This document shows, in pieces, positions 32,205 through 58,391 of a DNA stretch of 64,000 bases. Source of the stretch: an uncultured Bacilli bacterium (GTDB taxonomy: Bacteria; Bacillota_I; Bacilli_A; RF39; UBA660); assembly GCA_934148845.1 (NCBI GenBank), contig CAKPDH010000003.1, forward strand, positions 65,789-129,788, read 5' to 3'. Position 1 is the stretch's first letter. Each line of letters begins with the position of its first letter. Made by a program: the position numbers and the translations under genes. The notes below the pieces were generated by a model. It was not told the DNA's origin. It searched no databases and worked only from the letters and a program-made list of their open reading frames with translations.

Positions 32205-32311
32205 GAATTCTAAAAAAATATAGAATTCTTTTTAATTTAATCAAAAAGTATTTAAATTAAATTAAATTTATTATATAATTAATATAAGTTTTAGAGTAGT
32301 ATGGAGGATTT

Positions 32312-35300: not shown

Positions 35301-36376
35301 GTAGTGATGTTAAAGATGCTTCATATATTAAGTTTTCTTTAAGTAATAGCGATTATGGTAAAATAGAAGGGGACATGAATATAGTTGTAAAAAAGGGAGA
35401 TAAGATAGAGTTTCCAGAGTTAAATATTAAGGAAGGTTATGGATTACTTGGTTGGATAACAAAAAATGAAAATAATAGATTTAACTACAATAATTATATA
35501 GATATATCAAATGTAACTGCTACTTTAGGTACTCAAGAGTATATGGCTGTACTTGCTAAAGAGCATAAAATATATAGAGAAACTGATGGTAATAATAGTT
35601 ATGTTTGTACGGTTTTGAGTAGAAAAAGTATGCAAGAAAGTGGTTGTCCAAGACTTGCTGACCCATCTAATGCATCTGGATTTGAAGGATGGAAATATAA
35701 TAATAGAGTTATAGATAATTATTATACGAGAAAATTTATTACTGATAATGATGATTTTATAATAACATTTACACCTAGTTATACACAAATTAAAATATAT
35801 GAAAGTATAGAGGTTGTAATGAATAATACAAAAATTAGATATTCTAAACGAGGTGTAGACATAGTAAGTAAGATTGATAAAATAATAGGAACATATTCTA
35901 TGAATGGTAAAATATTTAGTGAGCCAATAAATAAAAATCAATGTGAATATGATGGAGATGTTCACTCAACTAGATTAGGTAAAAATGCTTTTAGAGCAAG
36001 GTGCAAAAGAATATATTCTAAATATATAGACTATGAAATTGTAAAAGTTCCACTAGACTATATTGATACGAATAAAAATGCTTTAGGCGCTGGAATATTT
36101 ACTATATATACTAATTCAAATTATGAAAATGAAATTAGTGAGGCATATATAAAAGATAGTGAAAATAATACTCATAAATTTGAAAGGACTCATTTAGGCC
36201 TAAGAATAGACTTAAAAGAATTTGTGCCAGGAAAATATCCAGTTGGCGATTATTGGTTTGATTTAGTTTTTAAAGGAAAGAATGAAGACCTAATTACATG
36301 TAAGTTTAAAGTTACAAAGACTAAGCTAGGTTTAATTCCTAAAAGAGATGTAATTATATGTCCAGAATATCAATGA
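32312..36376 (+). CDS. giant secreted adhesin-like protein with two Cna-B-type domains
   Basis: Signal peptide. Tandem Cna-B motifs (SGKYCIKETQAPYGY, GAYCVEETQAPNNY). Same C-terminal shared modules (DLNGDGVRNEID, YLVKYVMNGRPNSY, LTPSDIKAIRNYND, CSTDFIDNL). 1354 aa. No LPXTG motif. Confidence 0.65.
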   Translation: MKKIFMIIGISTIIICMVMINVSNVNSVTTSDTFEGIGSSGGSLTSNPCGESRTCMNLLPYFGIKVTIVKKNNNSLKSITKPIYVWNNVNESNELNYAIKFIVENKYVSDDPGIAQYLYKECYNAKIVDSIKVSNYIKKHSISSSGPNYNIFNYNDTNSDDEKARNVSSWDEMKSKLLNGNSHLQSLLKIIAENKLFNDGYSLDSVEGMLIKIEPINVFQEKNGESCLFYVGSMGDIHSGYTGSDSVLNDFFSPKVGYWRVYHNRIISYYVTNSDFNSIGYNGITGYEGETGIEDNYSKAVETYNNNGYAKTGLGVAYIKISSQYIPGKLQIKKIDGINNPIANVHFDLYKGLCTDGKLIKQDIVTSGEGLATVENLESGKYCIKETQAPYGYKKSDLEKIVYITAGETNSVEFKNFKYPALKIYKYKAGTKKALSGAEFTVYAGNCENKGARIDRGSTNEDGFLQFMLNKRGAYCVEETQAPNNYINSNSSKNVYLKFGDDITLEFENELDCKGEFEQAKVNGEVSMQDRIKIFWGKYSIDGKGRRYNQLLNLTNKDATSACQYKKPTYTPQITCFNFKYPSNSEFNANNLSNYNEQFFSNDGYINFCLTTTNIYTEKKLPSDKIKVKAGMIVFDDKLQLKVVKTCYKYQYDSASSASNSGFNYTLNDVWINKYRTSFTENIINNVRINKLITDYEYINEDKINYLKDIPNGSKSISDKDENNNLIKSEDDGKITYEYTYKYEYTPISLLYGSGKNIASKGKYSNNFNVPGIISTFSESGSQIIKFGVKYKDYTDNKDIYINTEDDDDNCKYTVDQAIITGSNLLNLQFEQVNLKNPFIEKNNNPTTGNVTIRKVGSNWRSIDINSFDLNGDGVRNEIDEAIKKYVNDFIKNPLASENGDNYLVKYVMNGRPNSYSKDKPKYVITLTPSDIKAIRNYNDSNDYQDYEKVYCTDSNNVLCSTDFIDNLKTTDPKVCVGDTCEKLSSGINFKREVTGGSDVKDASYIKFSLSNSDYGKIEGDMNIVVKKGDKIEFPELNIKEGYGLLGWITKNENNRFNYNNYIDISNVTATLGTQEYMAVLAKEHKIYRETDGNNSYVCTVLSRKSMQESGCPRLADPSNASGFEGWKYNNRVIDNYYTRKFITDNDDFIITFTPSYTQIKIYESIEVVMNNTKIRYSKRGVDIVSKIDKIIGTYSMNGKIFSEPINKNQCEYDGDVHSTRLGKNAFRARCKRIYSKYIDYEIVKVPLDYIDTNKNALGAGIFTIYTNSNYENEISEAYIKDSENNTHKFERTHLGLRIDLKEFVPGKYPVGDYWFDLVFKGKNEDLITCKFKVTKTKLGLIPKRDVIICPEYQ

Positions 36377-38720: not shown

Positions 38721-39122
38721 GTGAGAGAATCAGTATGGGGGTATGCAGTAATAGTACTTGGAGTACTGGCAATTATGATTATATGGTTTTTTGGTAATAA
38801 TACTAAAATAGATCAACATAATTATAATTTACTTAAAGAAACAGTAGAAAGTGCTATGTATGATTCGATTGATTTATCAGCTTATAGGGATAAAGGCGTT
38901 GTAAAGATAATTGAAGCAAAATTTATAGAAAATTTTATAAGAAGATTTGCTGAAAATGCAGATTTATCTAATACATATGTAATAGAAATATATGATGTGC
39001 TTGAAGCTCCACCTAAAGTAAGTTTAGTTGTTAAAAGTGCTAATGAGACAACTGCTACAGGTGAAATAGTTAAATTTAATATGGTAAATAATATAGACGC
39101 AGTATTAGAGACTACGTATTGA
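38721..39122 (+). CDS. TadE-like/pseudopilin-like protein
   Basis: N-terminus MRESVWG|YAVIVLGVLAIMIIWFF has a short charged leader ending in Gly and then a hydrophobic helix, which is the prepilin-like class III signal layout. It sits first in the Tad module. Confidence 0.45.
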   Translation: MRESVWGYAVIVLGVLAIMIIWFFGNNTKIDQHNYNLLKETVESAMYDSIDLSAYRDKGVVKIIEAKFIENFIRRFAENADLSNTYVIEIYDVLEAPPKVSLVVKSANETTATGEIVKFNMVNNIDAVLETTY

Positions 39123-39139
39123 GAGGAGAATAAAGAGAT

Positions 39140-40015
39140 ATGAATAATTTTGTTATAGGGTTAAAAAGATTTGTTACAAATAAAAATGTTGTTACTATTG
39201 TACTTGTTTTAGTAGCTCTTGGTTTATTATTTTGGGGGTATACTTCTACATTAAAGAAACAAACAAATCCAGTAAACTTACCAGTAGCGGCTACTACAAT
39301 AAGTGCTAGAACTAAATTAACTAATGAAAATATTAAATATGTTAAAGTTGCAAGTAGTATGATTAGTTCTAATGTTATTAGATCATCACAATCTTTAATT
39401 GATAAGTATGTAAATATTAATGTAACAGTTCCTGAGGGAAGCCCTTTTTATAAAGAATGGGTAGTAGAAGAAAAGGATGTTCCAGGTAACTGGGTTGAAC
39501 AATTAGATCGTAAAAAAGGTGAATTAGGTTACTATATGAGTGTTGATATGAACTCAACACTAGGAAATTCAGTATTACCTAATTCATATATAGATATATA
39601 CATGAAAGCTACTGATGAAAATGGTGTCATAATGTTTGGTAAACTTATGGAAAACATTAAAGTATTAGTAGTTCATGATGGTAGTGGAAAAAATGTATTT
39701 GATAATGTTAATTCTATTGGTACAGCATCAAAAATTGGATTTGCTGTAAGCCAAGATTTATATATATTATTAAAGAAAGCAAATTATCTTGGAATTGATC
39801 TTCAATTAGTGCCTCGTGGTAGTACAGTTCCAGATAATGATTATATTATTGTAAAAAGTTCTACATTAAGAGATTATATTGATGCACAAACAATTACAGT
39901 AGAAGAAGATTTAACTGCTGATGATATGAAGAACAATACTGATAATACAGAAAATAATACTGACAATAATACTAATACTAATACTAATACAAATAACGAA
40001 GCAAATAATCAGTAA
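39140..40015 (+). CDS. cpaB: Flp pilus assembly protein CpaB/RcpC-like
   Basis: N-terminal TM. SAF-like region (PVNLPVAATTISARTKLTNENIKYV). CpaB-type C-terminal region. Confidence 0.6.
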   Translation: MNNFVIGLKRFVTNKNVVTIVLVLVALGLLFWGYTSTLKKQTNPVNLPVAATTISARTKLTNENIKYVKVASSMISSNVIRSSQSLIDKYVNINVTVPEGSPFYKEWVVEEKDVPGNWVEQLDRKKGELGYYMSVDMNSTLGNSVLPNSYIDIYMKATDENGVIMFGKLMENIKVLVVHDGSGKNVFDNVNSIGTASKIGFAVSQDLYILLKKANYLGIDLQLVPRGSTVPDNDYIIVKSSTLRDYIDAQTITVEEDLTADDMKNNTDNTENNTDNNTNTNTNTNNEANNQ

Positions 40016-40043
40016 ATAAATAGAATAAAAAGGGTATGATAAT

Positions 40044-41228
40044 ATGCAGGATAGTATATTTGAAGGAATGGATTTTGGCCCTTTAACAGAATACTTGAAT
40101 AATGATGATATTACTGATATTTCGTATAGTAATAATGGACAAGTATGGTTAAAGACATTATCTAAGGGGATATTTAGAGTTGATAATCCGGCTATAAATA
40201 ATGCATTTATGGAAAAGCTTGCCTTTCAATGTTCAAATGTAATGGGTAAAAGTTTTAATGCAGCCCATCCGTTCCTAGACAGTGAAAGTGCGGAATTACG
40301 TATGAATTTTGTACATGATTCTATAGCAAAAAATGGTATAGCCTGCGTTATACGTAAAACCCCAGCAAAAATTAGACTTGAAAAGAAAAAAATATTAAAA
40401 GAAAAGTATGTAACTGAAGATATACTTGATATGTTAATAACTTGTGTTCATGGACATTGTAATATAATTGTTTGTGGAGAAACAGGTAGTGGTAAAACAG
40501 AATTTGTTAAATATCTTGCTTCAAATACATATGAAAATGAAAAAATAATAACAATAGAAGATACATTAGAGCTTCACTTAGACAAAATATATCCAAATAG
40601 AGATATTGTAGCTATGAAAACTAATAACATAGCAAGTTATTCTGATGTACTTGTAACTTGTATGAGACAAAATCCTAAATGGATTTTATTATCAGAAGTA
40701 CGTAGTGCAGAAGCTGTTATGGCTGTTAGAAACTCAATTTCATCAGGACATTATATTTTATCTACAATACACGCAGATAAGGCTTCTTCAATACCTAATC
40801 GTATGTATAGTTTACTTGAAACTAATCAGGATATAGAACAATTTTTAAAATCTATTTATAGATATATCCAAATTGGTGTATATATAAGAGGATATATGAG
40901 TAAAGAAGAAAAAAGATTTGTAAGAGAAATTGCAGAAGTTACTGAGTTTTATGTAACTGAAGATAATGAGGCTAAATATAATACTATTTATAAAAAAACT
41001 CCAGATGGAGTTGTGTATAGGAGAAATCCAAGCAAATACTTAATTGAATATCTAGAAGCTCAAGGAGTTAAACTACCTAATAATTTTATTAGGGAAGATT
41101 TACCAAATCCTGGTGATGAAGCTAAAAAAGAAAGCATGGATGACTATATGCGTGATATAAGTAGTAATCAAGTATTAGAAAAAAATACTACTAATAATAA
41201 AAAAAATGATGAAATTATATTTGGATAG
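40044..41228 (+). CDS. tadA: Tad/Flp secretion ATPase (TadA/CpaF; GspE/VirB11 superfamily)
   Basis: Walker A CGETGSGKT. Asp box ILLSEVR. His box STIHA. 394 aa, consistent with CpaF rather than VirB11. Flanked by CpaB-like and TadB/TadC-like genes. Confidence 0.85.
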   Translation: MQDSIFEGMDFGPLTEYLNNDDITDISYSNNGQVWLKTLSKGIFRVDNPAINNAFMEKLAFQCSNVMGKSFNAAHPFLDSESAELRMNFVHDSIAKNGIACVIRKTPAKIRLEKKKILKEKYVTEDILDMLITCVHGHCNIIVCGETGSGKTEFVKYLASNTYENEKIITIEDTLELHLDKIYPNRDIVAMKTNNIASYSDVLVTCMRQNPKWILLSEVRSAEAVMAVRNSISSGHYILSTIHADKASSIPNRMYSLLETNQDIEQFLKSIYRYIQIGVYIRGYMSKEEKRFVREIAEVTEFYVTEDNEAKYNTIYKKTPDGVVYRRNPSKYLIEYLEAQGVKLPNNFIREDLPNPGDEAKKESMDDYMRDISSNQVLEKNTTNNKKNDEIIFG

Positions 41229-41240
41229 GAGGTATAAATT

Positions 41241-42143
41241 ATGAATACTGTTTTACTTTTTGTAATTGTATCTGCAATACTTATATTTGTAATTATATAT
41301 AGAAGTAGTGCAGGAACTGAAACTTATGAGTTTGTAAAAACTCAAGGTAGAAGACTATATAGTAAAGTTTCTCCATATACTTATAAAGAAATAAAGAAGA
41401 AAATAAGAGAAATGAAACAGGATTATACTGTTCAACAATATATTTTACACATTGTTATATTTGCAATAGGCGCAGGAGGTATAACTTATTTGTACTTTTA
41501 TAGCATAATTATTTCAATAATATATGCTTTAATAGCAGTAGCGCTTGTACCTTATATTAACTATTTAAGATGTAAAAGAATATATAGTGAATTTATTTTT
41601 GAACAAATCCAAGTATATACTACTAATACCATTATGGAATTTGCAACTACTCAAAGCTTTGTAAAAGCTCTTGAGGGTGTTAATTCATCAGGAGTATTAG
41701 AAGATCCATTAAAACATGATGTTCAGGTAATGATTGATATGGCTTATGAAAATGGTACAATAAATCAATCACTTGAATATATGAATTCTAAATATGATTT
41801 TTATATGGTAAGAAACATGCATCAACTATTTTTACAAATTACTAATGAGGGTTCTAAAGATGCTAGTGATTCACTTGAAAATATGTCAAATGATATAGAT
41901 ACACTTGTTGAAGGAGTGTATAGGGATAGAATCGATAGGGAAGCATTTTATAAAAAATTTCTTAGATTTGGATTAATACTTTACTTAATGATAGGTGTAA
42001 TACAACTTATGTTAGGTGAAACATATCAAGTAATGCTTAAACTATGGTATGCTCAGCTTTTATTACATATTATCGTAATAGTAAATACATTTTTCTTAAT
42101 GTCTGGAACCAAATTTTATAATGAGAATGTAGGTGCCGAATGA
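41241..42143 (+). CDS. tadB: TadB-like membrane protein (GspF-domain)
   Basis: N-terminal TM, cytoplasmic helical domain and C-terminal TMs, in the typical position after the ATPase. Confidence 0.6.
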   Translation: MNTVLLFVIVSAILIFVIIYRSSAGTETYEFVKTQGRRLYSKVSPYTYKEIKKKIREMKQDYTVQQYILHIVIFAIGAGGITYLYFYSIIISIIYALIAVALVPYINYLRCKRIYSEFIFEQIQVYTTNTIMEFATTQSFVKALEGVNSSGVLEDPLKHDVQVMIDMAYENGTINQSLEYMNSKYDFYMVRNMHQLFLQITNEGSKDASDSLENMSNDIDTLVEGVYRDRIDREAFYKKFLRFGLILYLMIGVIQLMLGETYQVMLKLWYAQLLLHIIVIVNTFFLMSGTKFYNENVGAE

Positions 42144-42940
42144 GTATCTGGTTTTATGTACTTATCGCTGCAATTTTTATATTTGTAGTATGTTATAATA
42201 ATATTATTAATGTAAAAACTATAATAACTCAAGTAAATCCTATCTTACTTAAGTTTATGGAAAAAGACTATGAATTTTTATTAAGAGTAAAATATGGTGA
42301 AGCAGAATATGATATAAATTATTTATTTGGAATACGAATAAGAAATGGTATTATAACTAGTGCTGCTTTAATTCTTTTATTAATAGCAGCAGGCTATATG
42401 AGCTATATATTTGTTTTAGCATCATTAATTGCAGGCTTTCTGGCATTTAAAAGTAGTTATTTTACATTAAAAAATTATTACAAAGTAAGACTAAATTATA
42501 TAAGCTCTATGTTACCATATTTCTTGAAAAGCTTAGAAATATTAGTACAACATTATACAGTACCAGTAGCTTTATCAAGAAGTATTGATACCGCGCCAGA
42601 AATATTTAGACCAGGATTAAAACGTTTAGTAGCAAAAATAGACTCAGGTGATTCATCAATACAACCATATGTTGACTTTGCTAATGAATATCCTGTTAGA
42701 GATTCTATGAGAATGATGAGATTATTATATCGTTTAGGACTTGGTACTAATCAAGATAAACATGAGCAAATAATGATGTTTTCAAGAACAGTATCATCAC
42801 TTCAAAATAAAGCAAGAGAAATAAAATATAAAAATAGACTTGAATCTTTTGAAAAAAGAACAATGGTTATGTTATTTGTAACAGGTGGTGGAGTATTACT
42901 TGTATTATTCCTATCAATGACACTAATGATGCAAATATAA
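42140..42940 (+). CDS. tadC: TadC-like membrane protein (GspF-domain)
   Basis: Same topology class as tadB. Start overlaps the previous stop (ATGA coupling). Confidence 0.55.
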   Translation: MSIWFYVLIAAIFIFVVCYNNIINVKTIITQVNPILLKFMEKDYEFLLRVKYGEAEYDINYLFGIRIRNGIITSAALILLLIAAGYMSYIFVLASLIAGFLAFKSSYFTLKNYYKVRLNYISSMLPYFLKSLEILVQHYTVPVALSRSIDTAPEIFRPGLKRLVAKIDSGDSSIQPYVDFANEYPVRDSMRMMRLLYRLGLGTNQDKHEQIMMFSRTVSSLQNKAREIKYKNRLESFEKRTMVMLFVTGGGVLLVLFLSMTLMMQI

Positions 42941-43024
42941 TAAAAAAAACTAAAAAATGTTGAAAAATAAAACAAAAATATGATATACTAAAAGTGTAAT
43001 ATTATAAAGGTAGGTGATATATAA

Positions 43025-43276
43025 ATGAAAGAAGCAGCAGGAGAAGCTAACATGACAGTAATTACAATAGTATTAATAGCAATCGTACTTGCAGTTGGTA
43101 CACTTATTGTAAATACAATGATGAAAAATACAAAAAATAGTAGTGCTTGTTCAGCATGTGGCGGTTCTTGGAAGGGAGGTAAATGTATTGATCCTGATAA
43201 TAGTAATAATCTTATTGATTATACGTCTTGTTTATCAGGTGACCCTGCAAAACCAGCCCCAACACCAACACCTTAG
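43025..43276 (+). CDS. small TM protein, possible Flp-type pilin
   Basis: 83 aa with a short N-terminus, one hydrophobic helix, a Cys-rich middle and a Pro-rich tail. The canonical G/XXXXEY Flp motif is not evident. Confidence 0.3.
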   Translation: MKEAAGEANMTVITIVLIAIVLAVGTLIVNTMMKNTKNSSACSACGGSWKGGKCIDPDNSNNLIDYTSCLSGDPAKPAPTPTP

Positions 43277-43459
43277 TGTTGATGAAGTAAAAAAACTAAT
43301 GGGTAATGACCATAAGAGAGCTAATTTTTAGTTCTCTTTTATTATGGCTTATTTTTAAATGTTCTATATAATTAATTTTTTGTATAGAGTTATTTGGACT
43401 AAAAGTGATTGAATTTCTAAAATTTTTATGATATATTTAATATAGTAAGGAGGATAGAT

Positions 43460-44989
43460 ATGTTTAAGGTAAAAAGAGGTTTTTGGCTGTTTTTGTTTTT
43501 AATGTTTTTGCCTATATTGAATGTATATGCATTTTGTGTAGCTAAAGGTGATTTTGAGTATTGTTTTGATTCTGATGGTACTCAAGTTAGTGGGCCTAAG
43601 GGGGAACTTGATGATGTTATTTCATATGATGCACAAACTAATACTATAACTTTTAATAATTTTAGTGGTAAATATTTAGAAACTGCAGATAAAAGAAAGT
43701 TAAATTTAGTTTTTAAAGGAAGAAATTTATTTACTGAGTATATTAAAATAAGTGATGATTTAATAAATATTAGTGGTGATGGGGAATTAGTATTAGAAGT
43801 AAATGATGAAATTAATTCATTAATTGAGCTTTTTGGGTATCAAAATGAGTATGTTGGTAGTTATTCTACAATTAATATTAATGATATTAAAATAACTATA
43901 ACTGGTAATTTAAAGTATGATCAAGTAGGTATTGATGCAGTAGGGGATTTAAATTTTAAAAATACTAATATAAATATTTCTAATATAAATACTGGCGTTT
44001 TTTTTGGTGGAAGGTTTTTTGCAGATAATATTGGTTTAAATATATCAAATGTAGATACTGGCATGCTTATATCTGGTACAACTAAGTTAGATGATTCTAA
44101 TATAAATATTACTGATTTTAGTGAGTATGGTATGCATATTAGAACATCTACAATGGAGATGCAAGAGTTAGATATTACTAATAGTAATGTTTTTATAGAT
44201 GGAAAGTCTAAAGGTATAGGTGGATTATTATATGTAGGTGAAGAATTTAATCTTATAGATGGTTCATTTTTAATAAAAAATTGTAAGTATGGTATTTTTA
44301 GTAATGAAGCTGAGAATTTAGGCTTTATAAATATTAATGGTAAGTTAGATATTATAGATTCTCTTAGCGCAGCTATTTTACTAAGGGATGAGTCTAATTT
44401 TTCATATAATAAAAATAATATAGAGTTAAGTGGTGATTATGTACTTAGTGATTATATTGATTCTTTATATGGAGCTGGTTTTACTTATGCCAGTGAAAAA
44501 TTACCATATGGATATGATGATTTAGATGGAGAAATGGAAATTGAAATGACCGAGAGTGATTCGGCTAAGGTAGCTAAATCTATAAGCTTTTCTAAAAAGT
44601 ATAAAGAAAATAAATTGCTTGAGCAAAGTAAAAATGAATTAAAGGATAAAGATGATCTTACTTTGAGATTTGATTTAGATGTTTCAAAATTTTTATATTT
44701 GTATGTGGATGGTAAGTTATTAAGTAGAGAAAAAGGCGATTATACAGTTAAGTCTGGTAGTACGGTTGTTACTATTTCTAATAAATATTTGAGTACTATT
44801 AAGTCTGGGAATCATAATGTGAAAGCAGTATTTTCTGATGGTGTTGCAAGCGCTAATTTTAAAACTAATATAGAAAATCCAAATACAGGAATGAATGATG
44901 TAAATATTATTTTAATTATAATATTTACATTTAGTATACTATCTTATTTATTAATAAGAAGACGTAGTAAATTTCAAAAATCAGTGTAA
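43460..44989 (+). CDS. cell-wall-anchored surface protein with beta-helix-like repeats and NPNTG sortase-B sorting signal
   Basis: Signal peptide. Repetitive N(I/V)xxSN(I/V) parallel-beta-helix-like segments. The C-terminus carries NPNTG, then a hydrophobic helix, then RRRSKFQKSV, which is the class B sortase signal architecture. Confidence 0.6.
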   Translation: MFKVKRGFWLFLFLMFLPILNVYAFCVAKGDFEYCFDSDGTQVSGPKGELDDVISYDAQTNTITFNNFSGKYLETADKRKLNLVFKGRNLFTEYIKISDDLINISGDGELVLEVNDEINSLIELFGYQNEYVGSYSTININDIKITITGNLKYDQVGIDAVGDLNFKNTNINISNINTGVFFGGRFFADNIGLNISNVDTGMLISGTTKLDDSNINITDFSEYGMHIRTSTMEMQELDITNSNVFIDGKSKGIGGLLYVGEEFNLIDGSFLIKNCKYGIFSNEAENLGFININGKLDIIDSLSAAILLRDESNFSYNKNNIELSGDYVLSDYIDSLYGAGFTYASEKLPYGYDDLDGEMEIEMTESDSAKVAKSISFSKKYKENKLLEQSKNELKDKDDLTLRFDLDVSKFLYLYVDGKLLSREKGDYTVKSGSTVVTISNKYLSTIKSGNHNVKAVFSDGVASANFKTNIENPNTGMNDVNIILIIIFTFSILSYLLIRRRSKFQKSV

Positions 44990-45027
44990 AGCTTCAATAT
45001 TTTGAAGCTTTTCTAATAGGTGGTAAA

Positions 45028-46602
45028 ATGAGTAATAAGATTAAAATTATAGTAAAGAATAATGATATTATATTTTCTTTATATAATAGAAATATAAATG
45101 ATGAAAATTTAAATAATACTAATATAATTGATATAAAAAACTTAAAGTTTACATCTGAATATATAAGTAATAATTTAGATTTAATGTCTTCTTTTTTAAA
45201 TTTAATTGTATTAAAAAATAATATAACTAAATTAGTTATAACTGATTTAGAAGTAGCGCCTATAATAATTAAATTATCTTATAATATAAATATTCATAGA
45301 TTAATTTTTACTCAAGATATTGAGTTAAATTATACTATATCAGATGCTTTACTTAAAAATAGTAATTTAACTTATATAGAGTGTTATAGTATGCCTAAAG
45401 TTATGTTTAATAGATTTAATTCTTCTATTGTTGAAACGAGATGTAAAGTACCGTTTACAAGCAATTTTATGAAATATAATAATATTAATACTTATTCTAA
45501 GCTATGTAATATAGATAGAATAATAATTGATAGTTATTTAACTAAGAATGACTTAGATGATATTATTTATTTTTTTAGTGTAAATAGAAGTGTTAAAAGA
45601 ATTATAATAAAAGGATATAAAAGGAATAATTTAATAGTTTTTTTACAAATGATTGATAAATATAAATTAAAACATATTAAAATTATATTAGTTGAAGATT
45701 CCCTCGTTTTAAAAGATCTTACTAATGATATGGAACTTTTTACTAAATTAAGTAAAAAATATAATGTAAGTATTAAAATTAAGTATTCGGATTCTTATAA
45801 GAATAAAAACAAATTTAAAGAATTATGTATTATAATAATTAAATTAACTTTACTATTATTAATTTTGGTAGTGATTATTTTAATGCTATTTAAAAAAAAT
45901 ACGATAAAAAATGATAATAAGGGAATTGAAGATAATTTGAAAATAATAGATGAAGTAGTAAGTGATAATTCTAATATAAGTGATAATACGAATTCTTCAA
46001 GTTCTAATTTATATACTAGTCCCTATTATACTAAGTATGATAATGTGTATTCTAAATTGAAAGAAATAAATAACGATACTGTTGGATGGATTAAAGTTAA
46101 AAATACTAAAGTAGATTATCCTGTCGTACAAGGTAGTGATAATGAGTATTATCTAGATCATGCTTTTAATAAAACTAAAAATGGCGCAGGATGGATATTT
46201 GCTGATTATAGAAATAATTTAGATAGTTTAGATGATTTAGATGATAATACTATTATATATGGTCATGATATACAAAAGAATTTTCTTATGTTTGGTTCAC
46301 TTGAATTTTTACTAACTGATGCTTGGAATAGTGATTTAAATAATTTAGATATAACTTTTAATATAAGAGGTAATGATGTTATATTTAAGATATTTTCAGT
46401 GTATACAATTGATAAAACTAGTGATTATTTAGTAACTAATTTTTTAAATAAAGAAGATTATAAAAAATTTATTTTAATGATAAAAAATAGGAGTATTAAA
46501 GATTTTAATGTAGATATAGATGTATACTCTAAAATACTCACATTATCAACTTGTTATAAGACTGATTCAAAAAGATTAGTAGTGCATGCAAAAAAAATGT
46601 AA
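45028..46602 (+). CDS. srtB: class B sortase with ~270-aa N-terminal cytoplasmic extension
   Basis: C-terminal catalytic domain GWIKVKNTKVDYPVVQGSDNEYYLDH...GWIFADYRN...YGHD...LTLSTCY matches SrtB. A single TM lies at ~aa 270-290. The N-terminal domain is Leu/Ile-rich with LRR-like periodicity. Confidence 0.8.
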   Translation: MSNKIKIIVKNNDIIFSLYNRNINDENLNNTNIIDIKNLKFTSEYISNNLDLMSSFLNLIVLKNNITKLVITDLEVAPIIIKLSYNINIHRLIFTQDIELNYTISDALLKNSNLTYIECYSMPKVMFNRFNSSIVETRCKVPFTSNFMKYNNINTYSKLCNIDRIIIDSYLTKNDLDDIIYFFSVNRSVKRIIIKGYKRNNLIVFLQMIDKYKLKHIKIILVEDSLVLKDLTNDMELFTKLSKKYNVSIKIKYSDSYKNKNKFKELCIIIIKLTLLLLILVVIILMLFKKNTIKNDNKGIEDNLKIIDEVVSDNSNISDNTNSSSSNLYTSPYYTKYDNVYSKLKEINNDTVGWIKVKNTKVDYPVVQGSDNEYYLDHAFNKTKNGAGWIFADYRNNLDSLDDLDDNTIIYGHDIQKNFLMFGSLEFLLTDAWNSDLNNLDITFNIRGNDVIFKIFSVYTIDKTSDYLVTNFLNKEDYKKFILMIKNRSIKDFNVDIDVYSKILTLSTCYKTDSKRLVVHAKKM

Positions 46603-46687
46603 TTGTTACATTTTTTTAAATATACGATGATTGACATTTTTAATAGTTATGATATACTTATAATAGTAAAAGTAGGTGATTATACAT

Positions 46688-47188
46688 ATGCATGAGAGTC
46701 TTGGATATTCGGTAATTTTTAATATAGTAATTGTATTTGTTGTAATTATTTTTGTATTTATAGGATCTGTTTTAGTTTATTTTAAAAGTAATAAAGTAAG
46801 TAATGTTATAGCTGATTCAATTGAAAAATATTCTGGATATAATAAGTTATCTATAGAAGAAATAAATAAAAACATGAGTAATCTTGGATATAATAAAATG
46901 AAAATTAAGTGTGAAAACTTGAGTGAAGATGATAAATGTAAAGTAGAGGAAGGTAATCAATTACTTAATGATGGCTCAGATGGATATTGTGTATATTTTT
47001 GTCAGACTACAAAAGAAGTAGAAAAACAAAATGAAAGTGGAAATATAGTTAAGACTAAAGTATACTATTATTATTATAAAATTAAAACAAATATGATGTT
47101 TAAAATACCAATAATAAATGATATATTACCACTTCCTATATGGTCAACAACTAATGTTATGTATGATTTTGATGAAAATTTAAAATAG
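46688..47188 (+). CDS. TadE-like/pseudopilin-like protein (paralog of 47206)
   Basis: MHESLG|YSVIFNIVIVFVV... is a prepilin-like N-terminus. It shares ...SIEKYSGY/IEENGGY and (L)GY(N/L)K motifs with the next ORF. RBS AGGTGA. Confidence 0.4.
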   Translation: MHESLGYSVIFNIVIVFVVIIFVFIGSVLVYFKSNKVSNVIADSIEKYSGYNKLSIEEINKNMSNLGYNKMKIKCENLSEDDKCKVEEGNQLLNDGSDGYCVYFCQTTKEVEKQNESGNIVKTKVYYYYYKIKTNMMFKIPIINDILPLPIWSTTNVMYDFDENLK

Positions 47189-47205
47189 TAAAGTAAGGTG
47201 ATTTT

Positions 47206-47646
47206 ATGAAAGCATCAATAGGCGGAAGTATGCTTTTATATATAGTTTTGTTTTTTGTTTCTGTTGTAATTTTGTTTTTTGTAGGCATAATAGCTTATAA
47301 TAAAGCTTATAGAGTTAAAAATAGAATTGTAAATATAATAGAAGAAAATGGTGGATATACAGATGATCTTAAGGCTACAATAGATGGTGAACTTAAAAAA
47401 TATGGTTATTTGACTACAAAGGTTAGTGTAGATTGTAAGAAGGCATCATCACATAGTAATTCTACTTGTGAAAATCTACCTGCTGGTCAATATAAGTATT
47501 GTATATGTCATACTACTCATAATAGTGGTACAGTTTATGAAGTAATAACTTATACACAGTTTGATATACCACTTATAGGTGGTATATTATCAAACGCAGT
47601 ACATGGTGAGACTAAAACTTTAAGCGTAAATTACGATTATAGATAG
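47206..47646 (+). CDS. TadE-like/pseudopilin-like protein
   Basis: MKASIGG|SMLLYIVLFFVSVV... leader ends in GG and a hydrophobic helix follows. Paralogous to the previous ORF. Confidence 0.4.
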   Translation: MKASIGGSMLLYIVLFFVSVVILFFVGIIAYNKAYRVKNRIVNIIEENGGYTDDLKATIDGELKKYGYLTTKVSVDCKKASSHSNSTCENLPAGQYKYCICHTTHNSGTVYEVITYTQFDIPLIGGILSNAVHGETKTLSVNYDYR

Positions 47647-47662
47647 AATAGAGGGAAATTTC

Positions 47663-48661
47663 ATGAATGTAATTATATCAAATAAAAATCAAGCGTTGCT
47701 AGAAAATTTAGGTATAGATGTAATTAAAGAGATGAATGGCGAGTTTGAGGTAGACGAAATAATAGCAACTTTTCAAAATTTTTTTTATCAAAGAATGATT
47801 TTGGATATAACGGCTATTAAAAATTACTTGGATATTAGGAATTTACAAAAACTTTCAATTTCTTTAAATATGGAAAAAGTAATATTGCTTTTGGATGGAA
47901 CTGATGCAACAAGCAATCCTACATTTTTATCTAATTTAGTATCAATGGGAATATATAATTTTACTAAAAATGTAGAAGGTATTCAGTATCTTTATAATAC
48001 TCCAAATACTTATCGTGATGTAGCACAGTTTCATAACTTGACACAACAAACTACTCAAAGTAATCAACAACAAAGTGTTATGTCTGGTATAAATAATAAA
48101 AATAATCCTATAGCTAATTCTATTTCAGTAGAAGAAAGTGGTGCGACTAGAGTAATAGGTGTAAAAAACTTAACTAAACAATCTGGTGCGACAAGTTTAG
48201 TGTATATGATTAGAAATGTGCTTAAATCTAGATATAAAGTAATTGCTATAGAAGCTGATAAAACTGATTTTACATATTTTAATGATAATACGTTACTTTC
48301 TGTTCCAACATCTGATATTGGAACTGTTATAAAGAGAAATAGCGATATGGATGTTATTGTGATAGATATTAATAATAGTGTGGTAGCTGAAGGCTTTTGT
48401 CAAGATGTTCTATATCTAATAGAACCTTCAATAATAAAATTACAAAAATTAATGGCACTTAATGCAGTAGCGCTTCAAGGCCTAAAAAATAAAAAAGTTG
48501 TATTAAATCAAAGCTTGTTATCAAATCGTGATGTTGCAAATTTTGAATATGAGGCGAGAGTAAATGTATTTTATAATCTTCCTCCCCTTAATGAAAGAGT
48601 AAAAGAACAACCAGATTTAGCTGCTTTATTAGTAAAATTAGGTTTTAATAAGTTAAGATAA
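47663..48661 (+). CDS. TadZ/CpaE-like protein (receiver-like N-domain + ParA/MinD-like domain with degenerate P-loop)
   Basis: RVIGVKNLTKQSGATSLVYMIRNVL...KVIAIEADKT aligns to the VIAV.S.KGGVGKTT...VLLVDLD pattern of CpaE/TadZ, but the Walker A is degenerate. Confidence 0.45.
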   Translation: MNVIISNKNQALLENLGIDVIKEMNGEFEVDEIIATFQNFFYQRMILDITAIKNYLDIRNLQKLSISLNMEKVILLLDGTDATSNPTFLSNLVSMGIYNFTKNVEGIQYLYNTPNTYRDVAQFHNLTQQTTQSNQQQSVMSGINNKNNPIANSISVEESGATRVIGVKNLTKQSGATSLVYMIRNVLKSRYKVIAIEADKTDFTYFNDNTLLSVPTSDIGTVIKRNSDMDVIVIDINNSVVAEGFCQDVLYLIEPSIIKLQKLMALNAVALQGLKNKKVVLNQSLLSNRDVANFEYEARVNVFYNLPPLNERVKEQPDLAALLVKLGFNKLR

Positions 48662-48663: not shown

Positions 48664-49161
48664 TTGACAATAAAGTCTTTAAACCGTATAATAATTGATA
48701 GATGGGTGATAAAATTGAAAATTAAATTGGCATACAGACTTATGTTTATATTTGTTATATCATTTATGTTAAGTACAAGCGTATTTGCAGAGTGTAAACC
48801 AGGAGATATTAACTGTTACAATAATTATCCTACTGACACACTTGTAAGCTGTGGTGATGGTATGATTAAAGAAATCCCACCTTTAATACCTAAAGTAACA
48901 AGTATAGTTTATACGACTTTTCAAATATTGGTTCCAATATTATTAGTTGTATTTAGTATGTTTGATTTAGTAAAAGCAATTTCTGCACAAAAAGAAGATG
49001 ATATAAAGAAGGGTCAAAAACAACTTATTAGAAGAATAATTGCAGGTGTTATTGTGTTCTTTGTATTTGTAATTGTAAAATTTGCTATAAGCATTTTAGC
49101 CGATAATAGTGCTGGCATTATTGACTGTGCGGATTGTTTTATAAGAAATAATTGTAAGTAG
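48664..49161 (+). CDS. VirB2/TrbC-like two-TM protein, paralog 1 (signal peptide, KEDDIKKGQKQ loop, C-terminal CxDC)
   Basis: Likely true start at TTG ~48712 (MKIKLAYRLMFIFVISFMLSTSVFA|E). Hydrophobic helix VPILLVVFSMFDL, conserved loop, second helix, C-terminus CADCF..NNCK. Confidence 0.4.
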   Translation: MTIKSLNRIIIDRWVIKLKIKLAYRLMFIFVISFMLSTSVFAECKPGDINCYNNYPTDTLVSCGDGMIKEIPPLIPKVTSIVYTTFQILVPILLVVFSMFDLVKAISAQKEDDIKKGQKQLIRRIIAGVIVFFVFVIVKFAISILADNSAGIIDCADCFIRNNCK

Positions 49162-49177: not shown

Positions 49178-49597
49178 ATGAAAAAGAAATATTTAGTATT
49201 GTTTATAGTTATTGGAGCTTTGTTTTTTATGGCTCAACCAGTTTTAGCAGAAAATATAACAGCATGTGATGCATCTATTAAAGGAGCTGTAATTGATGAA
49301 AAAATACCTAATACTGTAAGCACAATAATTACAATAATTAAAATTGTAGTTCCAATTTTGCTAGTTGTGTTTGGTATGATGGATTTAGTTAAAGGAATTA
49401 TATCACAAAAAGAAGATGAAATTAAAAAAGGGCAACAAATATTTATTAAACGTTTAATAGCTGGAGCACTTGTGTTTTTTGTTTTCATAATCGTACAACT
49501 TATTATAAGCTTAGTAGCAGATGGCCAAAATGAAAATAAAAATATAATGACTTGTGTAAATTGTTTTATTAACAATAAAGGATGTAAAGGGAACTAA
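49178..49597 (+). CDS. VirB2/TrbC-like two-TM protein, paralog 2
   Basis: Signal peptide ...PVLA|EN. VPILLVVFGMMDL, KEDEIKKGQQ, second helix, C-terminus CVNCF..KGCKGN. RBS AAGGAGG. Confidence 0.4.
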   Translation: MKKKYLVLFIVIGALFFMAQPVLAENITACDASIKGAVIDEKIPNTVSTIITIIKIVVPILLVVFGMMDLVKGIISQKEDEIKKGQQIFIKRLIAGALVFFVFIIVQLIISLVADGQNENKNIMTCVNCFINNKGCKGN

Positions 49598-49615: not shown

Positions 49616-50725
49616 ATGATTGAAGCATTAAAAAAATTAAATAAGGGCTTTTTGATCTTTGTAGGGGCGATTATTTTACTTCCAATATTTATTGTTATAT
49701 TTTTGGCTATTATTCAATCTTGCAATAGAAATATTGGATATGAATCTTATGAAGAAAAAATGGAAAAAGCTGCACTTAAATACTTTGATAAAAAAGGCAA
49801 TCCAAAGAATGAGGCCGAAGTGTTAAATGTTAGCCTTTCAACACTTGTTTCTGAAGGTTATATTAAGTCTACTTCTAAGTTACTTGGTGATGACAGTTGT
49901 AAAGGTTCTGTTACTGTAAGGCTTAATGGAACTTTGTTTGAAAGTAATAATGGGGGTTACCTACATCCTTTGGCAACTTTAAAGTGTAAAGATTATGAAA
50001 CAAAAACTTTAACAAGCTATCTTATGAAAGATTTAACTGATCAAGAATCTGGGCTTTATAAAGATAATTTTGGATATGTTTATAAGGGAGATAGTGTAAA
50101 TAACTATATTACATTATTAAAAAATAACTATGTTATTCTTGGAATTGATAATAATAATATAGTTAAATTATTGAAAGTAGATGGATCTTCTCTTACACAA
50201 ATGTGGGACTCTAAATATAATGTAGAGGTAGATGAAGCTTATGGAATTAATATATATAAAGATAGTGAAATGCGTAAGCAATTAATTGCTGATTACAATA
50301 AAGGTAAAATATTTGATAAAAAAGTAAAAGCAAAGCTAGTAAGTTATGATGCGTGTATAGGACTAAGAAGTATAAATGATACATCAATAAATAATGAAAA
50401 TGATTGTAATACTAAGCTTCCAAAGGAAACTGTTTCACTTATTAGTATTTCTGATTATGCAAAAGCTAGTTTAGATAAAAACTGTAATAATATACGTTCT
50501 CGTTCATGTAGAAATTATAATTATTTAAGAGGAGTTAATTTAACTACTTGGACAATTAATGGAGTCTTGGATAATACATACGAAGTATATTATCTTCAAT
50601 ATGGAATTATTAATCATCAAGAAGCTAATACTTTTGAAAACTATAATATTGTAGTATATATAGATGGTAATGAAAAAGTAAAATCTGGTAGTGGTTCTAA
50701 AGATAGTCCTTATATTTTGTATTGA
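49616..50725 (+). CDS. type IV pilin-like protein (prepilin-type N-terminus, large C-terminal domain)
   Basis: MIEALKKLNKG|FLIFVGAIILLPIF... has a class III leader with Gly at -1 and Phe at +1 but no Glu at +5. ...LSTLVSEGYIKS resembles the ComGC/PulG pilin core. RBS GGAGG. Confidence 0.45.
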   Translation: MIEALKKLNKGFLIFVGAIILLPIFIVIFLAIIQSCNRNIGYESYEEKMEKAALKYFDKKGNPKNEAEVLNVSLSTLVSEGYIKSTSKLLGDDSCKGSVTVRLNGTLFESNNGGYLHPLATLKCKDYETKTLTSYLMKDLTDQESGLYKDNFGYVYKGDSVNNYITLLKNNYVILGIDNNNIVKLLKVDGSSLTQMWDSKYNVEVDEAYGINIYKDSEMRKQLIADYNKGKIFDKKVKAKLVSYDACIGLRSINDTSINNENDCNTKLPKETVSLISISDYAKASLDKNCNNIRSRSCRNYNYLRGVNLTTWTINGVLDNTYEVYYLQYGIINHQEANTFENYNIVVYIDGNEKVKSGSGSKDSPYILY

Positions 50726-50773: not shown

Positions 50774-51160
50774 ATGATGTTTTTAAAACTTGGAATGGAT
50801 GGAACATATAGATGTGGTAATTTAGATTTTGAATTTTCTGGTACTTTTCCATATATAATTTCGACACTTATTACATTAATAAAAATAATTGTACCAATCT
50901 TATTAATTATATTTGGAATGCTTGATTTAGGTAAAGCTGTTGTAGCGGCAAAAGAGGATGAGATTAAAAAGGGACAACAAACATTTATAAAAAGAGCTAT
51001 AACTGCTGTTATCGTATTCTTTGCAATACAAATTGTACAAATTGTTATTAATTTTGTATCTAGTAAAGATCCTAATGTAGTAAATTGCTTTAATTGTTTC
51101 GTTAACGGAAAAGAAAGCGATAAAGGTTGTATTGATTTAAATAAATCATATGACGAATAG
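50774..51160 (+). CDS. VirB2/TrbC-like two-TM protein, paralog 3 (no cleavable signal peptide)
   Basis: VPILLIIFGMLDL, KEDEIKKGQQ, second helix, C-terminus NCFNCF..GKESDKGC. RBS GGAGGAAA. Confidence 0.4.
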   Translation: MMFLKLGMDGTYRCGNLDFEFSGTFPYIISTLITLIKIIVPILLIIFGMLDLGKAVVAAKEDEIKKGQQTFIKRAITAVIVFFAIQIVQIVINFVSSKDPNVVNCFNCFVNGKESDKGCIDLNKSYDE

Positions 51161-51233
51161 TGATTAATCATTGATTAATCATTTTTTTTTTGATATAATA
51201 TGCATGATTATATTGGTTTATGGAGGAAGATAT

Positions 51234-53231
51234 ATGTCTTTAATTATAGAGTGGATTAGAAATATGATGTTTAGCATAGATAAAATAATATATGCTATGA
51301 TATCAAAAGTATATGATTTATTAATTACAATTGCTAGGACTTCACCATTATCGCAAGCAGACATACTTGCAATAGCTGATAGAATATATAAATTATTGGC
51401 TATTTTTATGGTGTTTAAGGTAACTTTTTCGTTAATCATGTATGTAGTAAATCCTGATGATTTTACTGATAAAAGTAAAGGATTTGGTAAGTTATCGCTT
51501 AACATAGTTCTTGTTTTTGCGCTTTTAATACTTACTCCTCATATATTTAACATGGCATATGATCTTCAGAGGATCGTTCTTGAAGATAACGCCATAGCTG
51601 GTTTAATATTTGGCGAAAAAAATGATAAAGATAATGACTTTTTTACAAGTGCTGGAGATGACATGGCATATATTGCTATATCGCCTTTCTTTGTACCTGA
51701 TGTATCTATTCAAAAAGGTTCACTTTATAACTGTACTACTTTATTAAAAGATAATAAAATGAATGAATCTTGTTCAGGTATTTCTAATGACAGTTTGACA
51801 AAAGTAGCATCATCATCTACCACGTTATACGATTTAACAAAAAAGACAGGTAGTACCTTTACAGATACAATGCTTAAAAATTATGTTACTGGAATAAACA
51901 ATAAAAGCTTAGGAATGGTTTTTAGAAAAGAACTTGTAGAAGCTCAAGTAGATGGCGAATTTATTATGGATTATTCATATATCATTTCAACGGCGGTTGG
52001 TGTGATAATACTTATACTTTTAGTAAACTTTTGTTTAGATGTTTCAATAAGAAGTATTAAATTTGCATTTTTACAATTAATTGCTCCAATTCCAATAATT
52101 TCATATATAGATCCAAAAAGTGGAAAAGATGGATTATTTAAAAAATGGACACAATTATGTGTTAAAACATATTTAAGCTTATTTATACGTTTATTGGCAC
52201 TTTATTTTGCAGTTTATATAATTTCAATGGTTGGAGATTTGGGACTTGTAGATGTTGTTGATAGTTCTTACGTTACAAGTAGACTTATTCTAGTTATAAT
52301 TATAATAGGCGCTCTTATGTTTGCAAAACAACTTCCAAATATATTAAAAGATCTTGGAATTAAACTTGACTCTGATGGATTTAAACTTAATCCTTTAAGA
52401 AGAATTGAAAATGGAGCTTTAGGAGGCAAAATATTAAAAAAGCCTAATGATTTGCTTGGAAAAGCTGGTAAAGCTGCATTGTTTGCACCTGCAATAGGGG
52501 CTGGATTGTTTGGTAAAAAAGCTATAGGTGCTATAGATGCTGCTAGAAACGGAAAAGGTCTTAAACAAGGATGGGATAGAACACATGGAAAATTATATAA
52601 TAATTTAAATAAGAAATTAGATGAATGGGCACCAGATAGAGCAGAAGCTAGAAAAAGTGAAAGAACTGGTAGAGAAGAAGTTGCGGCTATGCATAATAAA
52701 TGGACAAAAGGTAAAGAAGTAGCAGATAAATTAAAACGTTTTAATCCTGATAAACCTTGGGATGCTTTAGATGGATCAGACGTATCGGCGTACAATGCAA
52801 TATATAAAAACCCAGAATTTATAAGATCAAGAATGAATTTGGATCGCGCTGATGCTAAAAATAAAATCTTACATAGAATATCTGAACAGACCATGAGAGG
52901 TAGTAGTGTAGAGGAAGCTTTAAATGCAGAACTGGATAATATAAAAAAGCTTGATTCTAGTTCTCAAAATGATTTATTTAAAATGGCTGGATTGAAATTG
53001 AACGCTACTGGAACAGCACTAACACCGGATGGTCCTTCTGTTACGAAAGAACAAGCAACAGCTAGATTTACTGAAATGTTAGATAAAACTAGTAAAACAG
53101 TGAGTGGAATGGAGAAAGTACATGAAAGTATAAGAAAACAAAATCCAAATGATGCAGCCACAGAAGATGCTTTAAAACATGTAAAATATAATACTACGGA
53201 TCCAACAGATTCAAGTCGAAAATATAGTTAA
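51234..53231 (+). CDS. VirB6-like polytopic membrane protein (TcpH / Tn916-Orf15 class) with Lys/Ala-rich C-terminal tail
   Basis: ~8 TM helices in the first ~400 aa. Charged low-complexity C-terminal region. Directly upstream of the VirB3-like and VirB4 genes. RBS GGAGGAAG precedes the ATG at 51234. Confidence 0.5.
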   Translation: MSLIIEWIRNMMFSIDKIIYAMISKVYDLLITIARTSPLSQADILAIADRIYKLLAIFMVFKVTFSLIMYVVNPDDFTDKSKGFGKLSLNIVLVFALLILTPHIFNMAYDLQRIVLEDNAIAGLIFGEKNDKDNDFFTSAGDDMAYIAISPFFVPDVSIQKGSLYNCTTLLKDNKMNESCSGISNDSLTKVASSSTTLYDLTKKTGSTFTDTMLKNYVTGINNKSLGMVFRKELVEAQVDGEFIMDYSYIISTAVGVIILILLVNFCLDVSIRSIKFAFLQLIAPIPIISYIDPKSGKDGLFKKWTQLCVKTYLSLFIRLLALYFAVYIISMVGDLGLVDVVDSSYVTSRLILVIIIIGALMFAKQLPNILKDLGIKLDSDGFKLNPLRRIENGALGGKILKKPNDLLGKAGKAALFAPAIGAGLFGKKAIGAIDAARNGKGLKQGWDRTHGKLYNNLNKKLDEWAPDRAEARKSERTGREEVAAMHNKWTKGKEVADKLKRFNPDKPWDALDGSDVSAYNAIYKNPEFIRSRMNLDRADAKNKILHRISEQTMRGSSVEEALNAELDNIKKLDSSSQNDLFKMAGLKLNATGTALTPDGPSVTKEQATARFTEMLDKTSKTVSGMEKVHESIRKQNPNDAATEDALKHVKYNTTDPTDSSRKYS

Positions 53232-58379: not shown

Positions 58380-58391
58380 GTGAGGTGTAAG

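Follow-up and report, generated by a model that had tools for sequence, protein, structure and literature searches.

The stretch described here, positions 38721-48661 of a 64,000-nt window of DNA from an uncultured Bacilli bacterium, encodes a series of small membrane proteins, a secretion ATPase and a TadZ-like protein. The first-pass annotation had read it as a Tad-like module with unusual pseudopilin leaders, a degenerate TadZ and no prepilin peptidase in cis. The window (this term is used for all 64,000 nt) has a G+C content of ~25%. From 29.6 to 62.7 kb all genes lie on the + strand, and the stretch forms the first half of this long co-directional block, with a Gram-positive-type type IV secretion system (T4SS) located directly downstream. 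Open reading frames (ORFs) are named by their start positions. Between 41241 and 48661, Pfam and NCBIfam put a name on 45028 alone, which has a sortase domain.

Relatives of the locus occur in at least 204 species-level genomes, all of them metagenome-assembled genomes (MAGs) of uncultured gut bacteria. Their public labels are Bacilli, Tenericutes, Acholeplasma sp. CAG:878 and Candidatus Fimihabitans, the last being placed by NCBI in Mycoplasmatota incertae sedis, and the two closed genomes of relatives measure ~1.2 Mb each. N-termini and gene order were compared over 80 fetched related loci. The conserved order runs from the DUF5411 protein through a CpaB-like protein, the ATPase, two membrane proteins and one or two very small proteins to two proteins of 140-190 amino acids (aa), the TadZ-like protein, VirB2-like genes, VirB6, VirB3 and VirB4. 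Cross-species identity is ~78-81% for the ATPase and VirB4 and ~54% for the TadZ-like protein, which has 5450 metagenome homologues at E ≤ 1e-3. The synteny of the whole set is kept across these species of ~1.2-Mb gut Mycoplasmatota/Bacilli, and the gene set is real and larger than had been described.

Four gene families of this set have a leader of the consensus M-[KR]-E-[AS]-x-(x)-G in common, followed by ~20 hydrophobic residues, and exactly four ORFs of the window carry it: 38721, 43025, 46688 and 47206. The N-terminus of 38721 reads MRESVWG/YAVIV, with the slash marking the presumed cleavage site. In the 43025 family the leader M-K-E-A-A-G and the start of the mature protein, E-A-N-M-T-V-[VI]-T-I, are essentially invariant over 51 orthologues. 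The leader reads M-[RK]-E-[AS]-[IV]-G in the 47206 family (68 orthologues), M-[KR]-[EQ]-S-[IV]-G in the 46688 family (47 orthologues) and M-[KR]-E-S-[FYM]-W-G in the DUF5411 family (41 orthologues). Over the four families and 80 loci, 201 of 222 scorable proteins have Gly at this site, and the remainder mainly Ala or Ser; in the 43025 family Gly is found in 48 of 48. This recurrence exceeds chance by far, and a limit to small residues at one position is to be expected of a cleavage site of the signal type. One species (locus L054, 9055-9986) has Ser at the site in both minor pilins and Ala in the DUF5411 protein. These changes look coordinated and could track the specificity of a putative peptidase.

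The first-pass annotation had listed 38721, 46688, 47206 and 49616 as carriers of a short charged leader ending in Gly. Sequences and logos uphold the first three, and 43025 was absent from that list. ORF 49616 was rejected as a pilin. The Gly of its KG/F in the window is Lys in most orthologues, which read ...ALKKLDKKFLIIAGC..., that is, Lys-Lys followed by a membrane anchor.

None of the four families has Glu at +5, as had been noted for 38721, 46688 and 47206, and the 43025 family has an invariant Glu at +1. The Flp motif G/XXXXEY is likewise missing from those three proteins and from 43025, which reads G/EANMTV, with Thr at +5 and Val or Ile at +6 in all orthologues, and which has no match to the Pfam family Flp_Fap. 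The reference Tad substrates of annotated Rhizobium and Ralstonia loci have leaders ending in ...REEDG/V, ...RDEQG/A, ...RREEG/A and ...QESDG/V. Their order of basic, acidic, x, Gly is that of the present leader, which resembles the ...[RK]-[DE]-E-x-G end of TadV substrates. Unlike the reference substrates, however, the present pilins are without E-Y or E-F at +5/+6.

The features of a class III signal peptide are present: a short basic leader, a small residue at -1, a hydrophobic stretch and a long N-terminal helix. The 46688 and 47206 families align, with a conserved Cys pair and an FDxPxxG motif in common, and on this alignment they are paralogues. An AlphaFold2 (AF2) model of 47206, with a mean predicted local distance difference test score (pLDDT) of 72 and a predicted template modelling score (pTM) of 0.63, consists of helix 5-48 (44 residues), helix 55-66 and four strands. 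The modelled shape is, in general outline, that of a type IV pilin. The 43025 protein is of Flp size, has the most conserved copy of the leader and is tandemly duplicated in several species. Of the four it is the strongest candidate for the major pilin, which it likely is. Members of the four families are predicted to be type IV pilin-like because of their leader, topology and gene context, and assignment to the TadE or Flp families has no profile support. In two related loci the DUF5411 module carries a fused C-terminal extension of 400-700 residues (L019, 2680-5106, 808 aa; L064, 3454-5187, 577 aa). These long fusions keep the MKES.WG leader and are reminiscent of tip-adhesin minor pilins.

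The 40044 ATPase has a clear T2SSE domain and matches the VirB11, TrbB and TadA-family models of NCBIfam, all under their cut-offs. The adjacent 39140 protein is CpaB-like by weak, sub-threshold matches to TIGR03177 (27.8 bits against a cut-off of 71) and to Pfam RcpC (E = 0.01). Two platform paralogues are present, as in Tad systems, since the family of the membrane protein 41241 (profile A2) matches a profile of the 42140 family. This profile, A8, combines the window 42140 protein with 49 diverse cluster representatives; at E ≤ 1e-3, 450 cluster representatives are related to the 42140 family. A8 in turn matched profile A9, a small alignment of TadB and TadC from Rhizobium and Ralstonia. The TadB/TadC match appeared only after the 42140 profile had been widened with distant representatives and an alignment was used as the target. 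With a single reference TadZ, TadB or TadC as the target, hhalign of the family profiles was negative, and comparison of the 41241, 42140 and TadZ-like families with PDB sequences, by sequence and by profile, gave nothing meaningful. By profile comparison, 41241 and 42140 are paralogous TadB/TadC-type platform proteins, and neither is a disguised peptidase.

The TadZ-like protein 47663 contains GVKNLTKQSGATS, the degenerate Walker A motif that had been quoted for it, and all aligned orthologues have Ala or Ser in place of the Walker lysine (position 176). Its AF2 model (pLDDT 80.5) has an N-terminal alpha/beta domain (residues 1-127), a disordered linker and a C-terminal domain. The P-loop of the model ends in G175-A176-T177, with no Walker lysine. 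Foldseek matched the model to a ParA-family ATPase (3ea0, E = 7e-5), to MinD (4v02, E = 2.5e-4) and, over both domains, to TadZ of E. rectale (3fkq, E = 1.8e-3). The C-terminal domain falls among ParA/MinD/FleN-type proteins. Nevertheless, 47663 has no Pfam, NCBIfam or PDB sequence match and sequence profiles were negative, so that its likeness to TadZ is one of the modelled fold only.

In the Tad loci of Rhizobium and Ralstonia, too, the proteins at the TadZ position (GGAGAS and GVGTTT, respectively) have no Walker lysine, and the P-loop G-A-[TS] of the 47663 family agrees with their G-A-S and G-T-T. Because an atypical Walker A is in addition described for TadZ (PMC6668835), the degenerate motif of 47663 is ordinary for a protein of this kind. 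The module is thus Tad-like by remote methods throughout, namely the T2SSE domain, the hhalign match of the platform proteins, the fold-level likeness to TadZ and the weak match to CpaB, and that part of the earlier reading is supported.

We consider it fairly probable that the genes of 38721-48661 specify a strongly diverged filament machine of the Tad type (type IVc), with prepilins processed in trans, inside a T4SS locus. In such a machine the four leader families (43025, 46688, 47206 and 38721) would be prepilins with a minimal leader, and an A24 aspartic peptidase encoded elsewhere in the genome would cut them after Gly. The ATPase and the TadB/TadC platform would polymerise the prepilins, with the 83-aa 43025 protein as the major subunit, and the 46688, 47206 and DUF5411 proteins might prime, cap or form the tip of the filament. 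The TadZ-like protein would serve as a non-hydrolysing positioning hub. The filament would make or stabilise the cell-to-cell contact needed by the T4SS, like type IV pili for IncI plasmids. This contact role is the most likely one because the module is embedded in the T4SS locus and co-conserved with it.

Several results weigh against this explanation. Filament, processing and function are all predicted from genes of uncultured organisms. The TadE and Flp models of Pfam and the pilin models of NCBIfam match no pilin-like family: 46688 and 47206 have no Pfam or NCBIfam match, TadE included, and 38721 matches DUF5411 only. In hhalign comparisons the pilin-like families were negative against a real TadE (Rhizobium), and against a real TadF they gave merely a 13-column FDxPxxGG motif (prob 29%). 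The likeness to known Tad substrates, for which an alignment of leaders with the TadE, TadF and Flp families had been proposed, thus holds for the conserved motif at the leader end and fails for TadE homology by profile search. Foldseek found no significant PDB neighbour for the 47206 model (best E = 0.55). Among the platform proteins, Pfam T2SSF matched neither 41241 nor 42140 and none of ten distant 42140 representatives; at E ≤ 10, over all members of the two families, it matched 1 of 38 sequences. Finally, the best NCBIfam score of 40044 is with VirB11 (115 bits), slightly above the TadA models, all being below cut-off.

The VirB11 score also favours an explanation without a separate filament. 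The ATPase would then be the VirB11 of the T4SS, and the bitopic and 41241/42140 proteins would be accessory channel or assembly parts of a Gram-positive T4SS. The genes form one contiguous, jointly conserved set with VirB4, VirB6 and VirD4, homologous ATPases of Firmicutes plasmids are annotated as CpaF/VirB11, and VirB2-like pilins are also present in the locus. Nevertheless, T2SSF platform proteins are foreign to VirB11 systems and two of them are found here, and the TadZ-like and CpaB-like proteins are Tad-specific accessories. Moreover, one distant relative (L066) keeps the Tad-like genes together, with most T4SS genes not found in the 10 kb downstream. For these reasons a VirB11-only role of the ATPase is distinctly unlikely. 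The prepilin-style leader common to four families is a further point against it.

The divergent Tad-type machine with processing in trans needs a peptidase, and another point against it is that none was found within ~84 kb around the locus (the window plus 10 kb beyond each end, ~7% of one genome) or in ~88 related loci. Pfam detected no A24 peptidase in any window ORF of at least 100 aa, none was seen among the smaller ORFs read by eye, and the 10 kb beyond each window end were negative for it. The GxGD motif is missing from window ORFs of at least 80 aa and from the membrane ORFs of the 80 related loci. With two real TadV proteins as queries, phmmer reached no better E than 0.12 over all six-frame ORFs of the window and ~88 loci. 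The claim that no A24 peptidase is visible in the array is therefore borne out by Pfam, motif and phmmer alike. Such an absence is ordinary because tadV usually lies elsewhere in Gram-positive tad systems. It is typically unlinked in Gram-positive tad loci, and both M. luteus tad loci and other actinobacterial ones are without it (PMC4322843); the prepilin peptidase is described as a 'loner' or shared gene (PMC6668835). Two premises of the first-pass annotation, the TadZ motif and the missing peptidase in cis, are less anomalous than it had held. Most likely, the pilins are cleaved after Gly by a putative peptidase encoded elsewhere.

As an alternative, assembly might be independent of a peptidase. 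The segment M-[KR]-E-[AS]-x-G would not be removed, and charge pairing, otherwise the role of Glu5, would fall to the invariant Glu3 (or to Glu7 in the major pilin). The failure to find an A24 gene in the sequence covered would suit this scheme, as would the lack of Glu+5 in all four families and the strongly reduced genomes (~1.2 Mb). In addition, K/R2, E3 and A/S4 of the leader are, besides Gly, unusually strongly conserved, and the presumed cleavage site is occupied by Ile or Met in a few orthologues of DUF5411, which also counts against cleavage by a peptidase in trans. We nevertheless hold peptidase-independent assembly to be unlikely, as we know of no functional type IV filament made of unprocessed pilins. 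The limit to Gly, Ala or Ser at one position fits a cleavage site, the peptidase search covered only ~7% of one genome, and in Gram-positive bacteria tadV is normally unlinked (PMC4322843).

It had also been suggested that a TadV might be hidden in 36462, a 517-aa membrane protein with a polytopic N-terminus. This was rejected on motifs and profiles: 36462 has no Pfam or NCBIfam match, no GxGD and no phmmer similarity to TadV, and its conserved D127, R146 and G149 are unlike the A24 signature. More generally, the pilins might be processed by a protease outside the A24 family or by some membrane protein of the locus that has escaped recognition, be it 36462 or another ORF. The topology of 36462, its three conserved residues, its retention in closer relatives and its lack of any known family are consistent with this role. 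The same negative motif and family searches nevertheless speak against it, and 36462 was detected in 23 loci only (a count limited by contig ends) as against 57-84 for the core genes. In the distant relatives L064 and L066, moreover, the module starts at DUF5411 with no 36462 homologue upstream. Processing by such a protein is accordingly highly improbable, and cleavage in trans is retained as the preferred explanation. The features of the block are collected in Table 1.

Table 1. Features of the co-directional block from the DUF5411 gene to VirD4, with the evidence for each.
Feature	Position	Strand	Evidence
DUF5411 pilin-like protein, candidate minor/tip pilin	38721..39122	+	PF17424 E 1.3e-46; leader MRESVWG/, then hydrophobic helix
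CpaB/RcpC-like bitopic protein (weak match)	39140..40015	+	TIGR03177 E 1.4e-6; present in 59 loci
T2SSE-superfamily secretion ATPase (TadA/CpaF or VirB11-like)	40044..41228	+	PF00437 E 2.8e-27; Walker A GETGSGKT intact; median identity 78% across loci
TadB/TadC-type inner-membrane platform protein, paralogue 1 (predicted)	41241..42143	+	hhalign A2 vs A8 prob 90.3%, E 1.5e-6
TadB/TadC-type inner-membrane platform protein, paralogue 2 (predicted)	42140..42940	+	hhalign A8 vs A9 prob 91.8%, E 7.5e-7, 123 columns of T2SSF core
Flp-sized 83-aa protein, candidate major pilin	43025..43276	+	MKEAAG/EANMTVITIVLIAIV; N-terminus near-invariant in 51 orthologues
Surface protein with C-terminal NPNTG sorting signal, species-specific insertion	43460..44989	+	sequence reading; in the window's own species only
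524-aa membrane protein with C-terminal sortase domain, insertion paired with 43460	45028..46602	+	PF04203 E 1.2e-10; absent from nearly all related loci
Minor-pilin-like protein A (MHESLG/YSVIF...)	46688..47188	+	family leader; paralogue of 47206
Minor-pilin-like protein B (MKASIG/GSMLL...)	47206..47646	+	family leader; AF2 model
TadZ-like two-domain protein	47663..48661	+	AF2 and Foldseek; no Walker lysine
VirB2-like T4SS pilin paralogue 1	48742..49161	+	PF18895 E 3.9e-5, under gathering score
VirB2-like T4SS pilin paralogue 2	49178..49597	+	PF18895 E 0.0028
Bitopic membrane protein, N-terminal signal anchor, outside the pilin-leader class	49616..50725	+	orthologue N-termini ...KKLDKKFLIIAGC...; no family matches
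VirB2-like T4SS pilin paralogue 3	50774..51160	+	PF18895 E 0.0012
VirB6/TrbL-like protein	51171-53231	+	family searches
PrgI/VirB3-like protein	53252-53578	+	family searches
VirB4 N-terminal ORF	53556-54101	+	NF045975 (mycoplasma ICE VirB4) E 1.3e-12
VirB4 ATPase ORF	54092-55876	+	NF045975, 347.7 bits; cut-off 590
VirB1-like wall hydrolase (M23 and lysozyme domains)	58380-59633	+	family searches
Two small ORFs without assigned family	between 59633 and 60619	+	
VirD4 coupling protein, last gene of the locus	60619-62736	+	PF02534 E 7e-58

The T4SS downstream of the pilus module is related to those of mycoplasma integrative and conjugative elements (ICEs), NF045975 being the best NCBIfam model for VirB4. 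VirB4 is split into two overlapping ORFs, and the split is kept in related loci, at ~75% and ~81% identity. The three VirB2-like paralogues match PF18895 (T4SS_pilin) below threshold. The copy number in relatives ranges from one to four, larger N-terminal domains being fused to some of the copies, and a VirB2-like homologue on a Paraclostridium plasmid clears the Pfam threshold (27.8 bits).

The locus is bordered by scpAB upstream and by genes for rhodanese, RmuC, RNase R, SmpB and a penicillin-binding protein (PBP) downstream, right after VirD4 (L089 12174-22118). Pfam and NCBIfam scans found no relaxase or integrase families in 29.6-62.7 kb, where several ORFs without annotation, among them 29655, 55894, 57726, 59645 and 60117, could include a novel relaxase. 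Megablast of the region against plasmids gave no match. That the locus is an ordinary ICE beside tRNA-Leu was considered and rejected, as scpAB separates it from the tRNA, housekeeping genes come directly after VirD4, and neither a relaxase nor an integrase was detected.

A broader explanation is that the Tad-like filament and the T4SS, in which no relaxase was recognised, form one vertically inherited chromosomal apparatus for attachment to partner cells and exchange of material with them. It would use a new pilin class (six-residue M-K-E-A-x-G leader, no Glu5) with non-canonical processing or none. This apparatus would take up ~3% of the 1.2-Mb genome of an auxotrophic gut member of the Mycoplasmatota/Bacilli and might be used in a Patescibacteria-like manner. 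We put it forward as a tentative and rather doubtful proposal. The unusual aspects of the locus are its leader and its setting, and of these the conserved chromosomal Tad-plus-T4SS block is the more interesting one.

The 43460 and 45028 genes are an insertion into the module, outside the conserved set. The NPNTG protein and the sortase (43460-46602) sit between the major pilin and the minor pilins in one species only and look like a private adhesin-plus-sortase cassette. At its start, the co-directional block has two very large secreted proteins of 849 and 1354 aa (29655-36376), of which the 1354-aa protein contains SpaA/prealbumin-fold domains. By eye, the two have similar C-terminal stretches. 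Related loci seldom have homologues of either, and both are probably variable adhesins.

A separate mobile element occupies 1-9451 (and L091 1-10000). It carries a sigma factor, TnpV, an EcoRI-type methylase, GmrSD/HNH, a Bro-N protein, a four-LysM protein and a large serine recombinase (4234-5844). This recombinase-bearing element, at 1-9 kb and further upstream, is separate from the T4SS block. A transposase-like ORF (IS30-type by eye) and a truncated serine-recombinase fragment adjoin tRNA-Leu(CAA) (24112-24996, 27013-27393 and 28115-28201). These remnants probably mark an old integration that had nothing to do with the T4SS block, situated beyond scpAB. On the minus strand, an AIPR (abortive-infection) family protein adjoins a collagen-repeat protein (17109-20087).

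The host lineage comprises prevalent uncultured small-genome gut bacteria whose lifestyle is largely obscure. A ~33-kb block for filament and secretion, with ATPases ~80% identical across species, strongly hints at a contact-dependent way of life. Standard annotation overlooks nearly all parts of the pilus module, and such systems are therefore undercounted. The M-[KR]-E-[AS]-x-G leader offers a simple search key for the present pilin class and poses the question of Glu5-independent or peptidase-independent assembly of bacterial type IV filaments. In addition, VirB2-like arrays in a monoderm outside the Patescibacteria bear on the question whether pili can be built by Gram-positive T4SSs at all.

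In the literature, no description of the present locus or of DUF5411 function was found, nor any paper on a Tad-like module paired with a Gram-positive T4SS. The closest parallels in print are the TANB77 cluster, the T4SS of the Patescibacteria and the type IV pili of IncI-type conjugation, all treated below. Also among the closest known systems is the Gram-positive Tad/Flp (type IVc) system, for example that of Micrococcus luteus (PMC4322843; Denise et al. 2019, PMC6668835). Both have a T2SSE ATPase with two TadB/TadC paralogues, a major pilin of 50-90 aa that is often duplicated, several minor pilin-like proteins and no secretin, and in both the peptidase is unlinked and TadZ has an atypical Walker A. 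The present pilins differ in being without G/XXXXEY, a TadE-type motif or Glu+5, and their leader extends for only 5-6 residues after the start Met. Moreover, the pilins, platform proteins and TadZ fall under Pfam/NCBIfam thresholds here, and the module lies inside a T4SS locus.

A Tad-like cluster of the TANB77 gut clade (PMC11680825) likewise comes from uncultured reduced-genome gut Firmicutes. Its CpaB, TadZ/CpaE, TadA and TadB/TadC are recognisable mostly by structure, it includes a run of short pilin-like proteins with a single transmembrane (TM) segment that carry no annotation by sequence, and a peptidase is not among the genes listed for it. In contrast to the present hosts, that clade belongs to the Clostridia; TadC and TadB are fused, two ParA-like proteins are present, and the paper reports no T4SS context and no common leader motif.

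A type IV filament and a T4SS are also encoded together in the IncI plasmids R64 and TP114, which have a thin pilus, and in PAPI-1 (PMC9045228; PMC12857230). There the filament serves mating contact, and type IV pili assist IncI-type conjugation (PMC9045228). Unlike the present module, these type IVb pili belong to Gram-negative bacteria, have canonical pilins and a peptidase of their own, and are found on clearly mobile elements with relaxases.

With the Patescibacteria (PMC12102498; PMC12857230) the present bacteria have in common a monoderm envelope, reduced genomes, a Gram-positive-type T4SS (VirB1/3/4/6, VirD4) and VirB2-like arrays. In both, the system is chromosomal and widely conserved, and most loci are without a relaxase. 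The relaxase-less T4SS with VirB2-like arrays of the Patescibacteria (PMC12102498) has been called unique among monoderms in a review (PMC12857230). The two differ in phylum, and the type IV pilus genes of the Patescibacteria are canonical and not interleaved with the T4SS. Essentiality has been shown for the system of the Patescibacteria only.

A similar arrangement was found on plasmids of Firmicutes. Conjugative plasmids, including those of Listeria, carry ATPases annotated as CpaF/VirB11 that are 28-31% identical to the 40044 ATPase, and tblastn of the TadZ-like and DUF5411 proteins against plasmids gave no match. B. subtilis pBS72 has a partial layout, with VirD4, a 236-aa protein, CpaF/VirB11, a 273-aa protein, VirB6 and VirB4. 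The Paraclostridium bifermentans plasmid NZ_CP079739.1 has the same order as the present locus: a small TM protein, CpaF/VirB11, two polytopic proteins and small Flp-like ORFs, with the leader DRASWG/MLALV, followed by a VirB2-like pilin, VirD4, VirB6 and VirB4. These systems differ in being plasmid-borne and in having MOBP relaxases and other leaders. Because a similar composite is found on the Paraclostridium plasmid, the present lineage is not alone in combining a Tad-like module with a Gram-positive T4SS.

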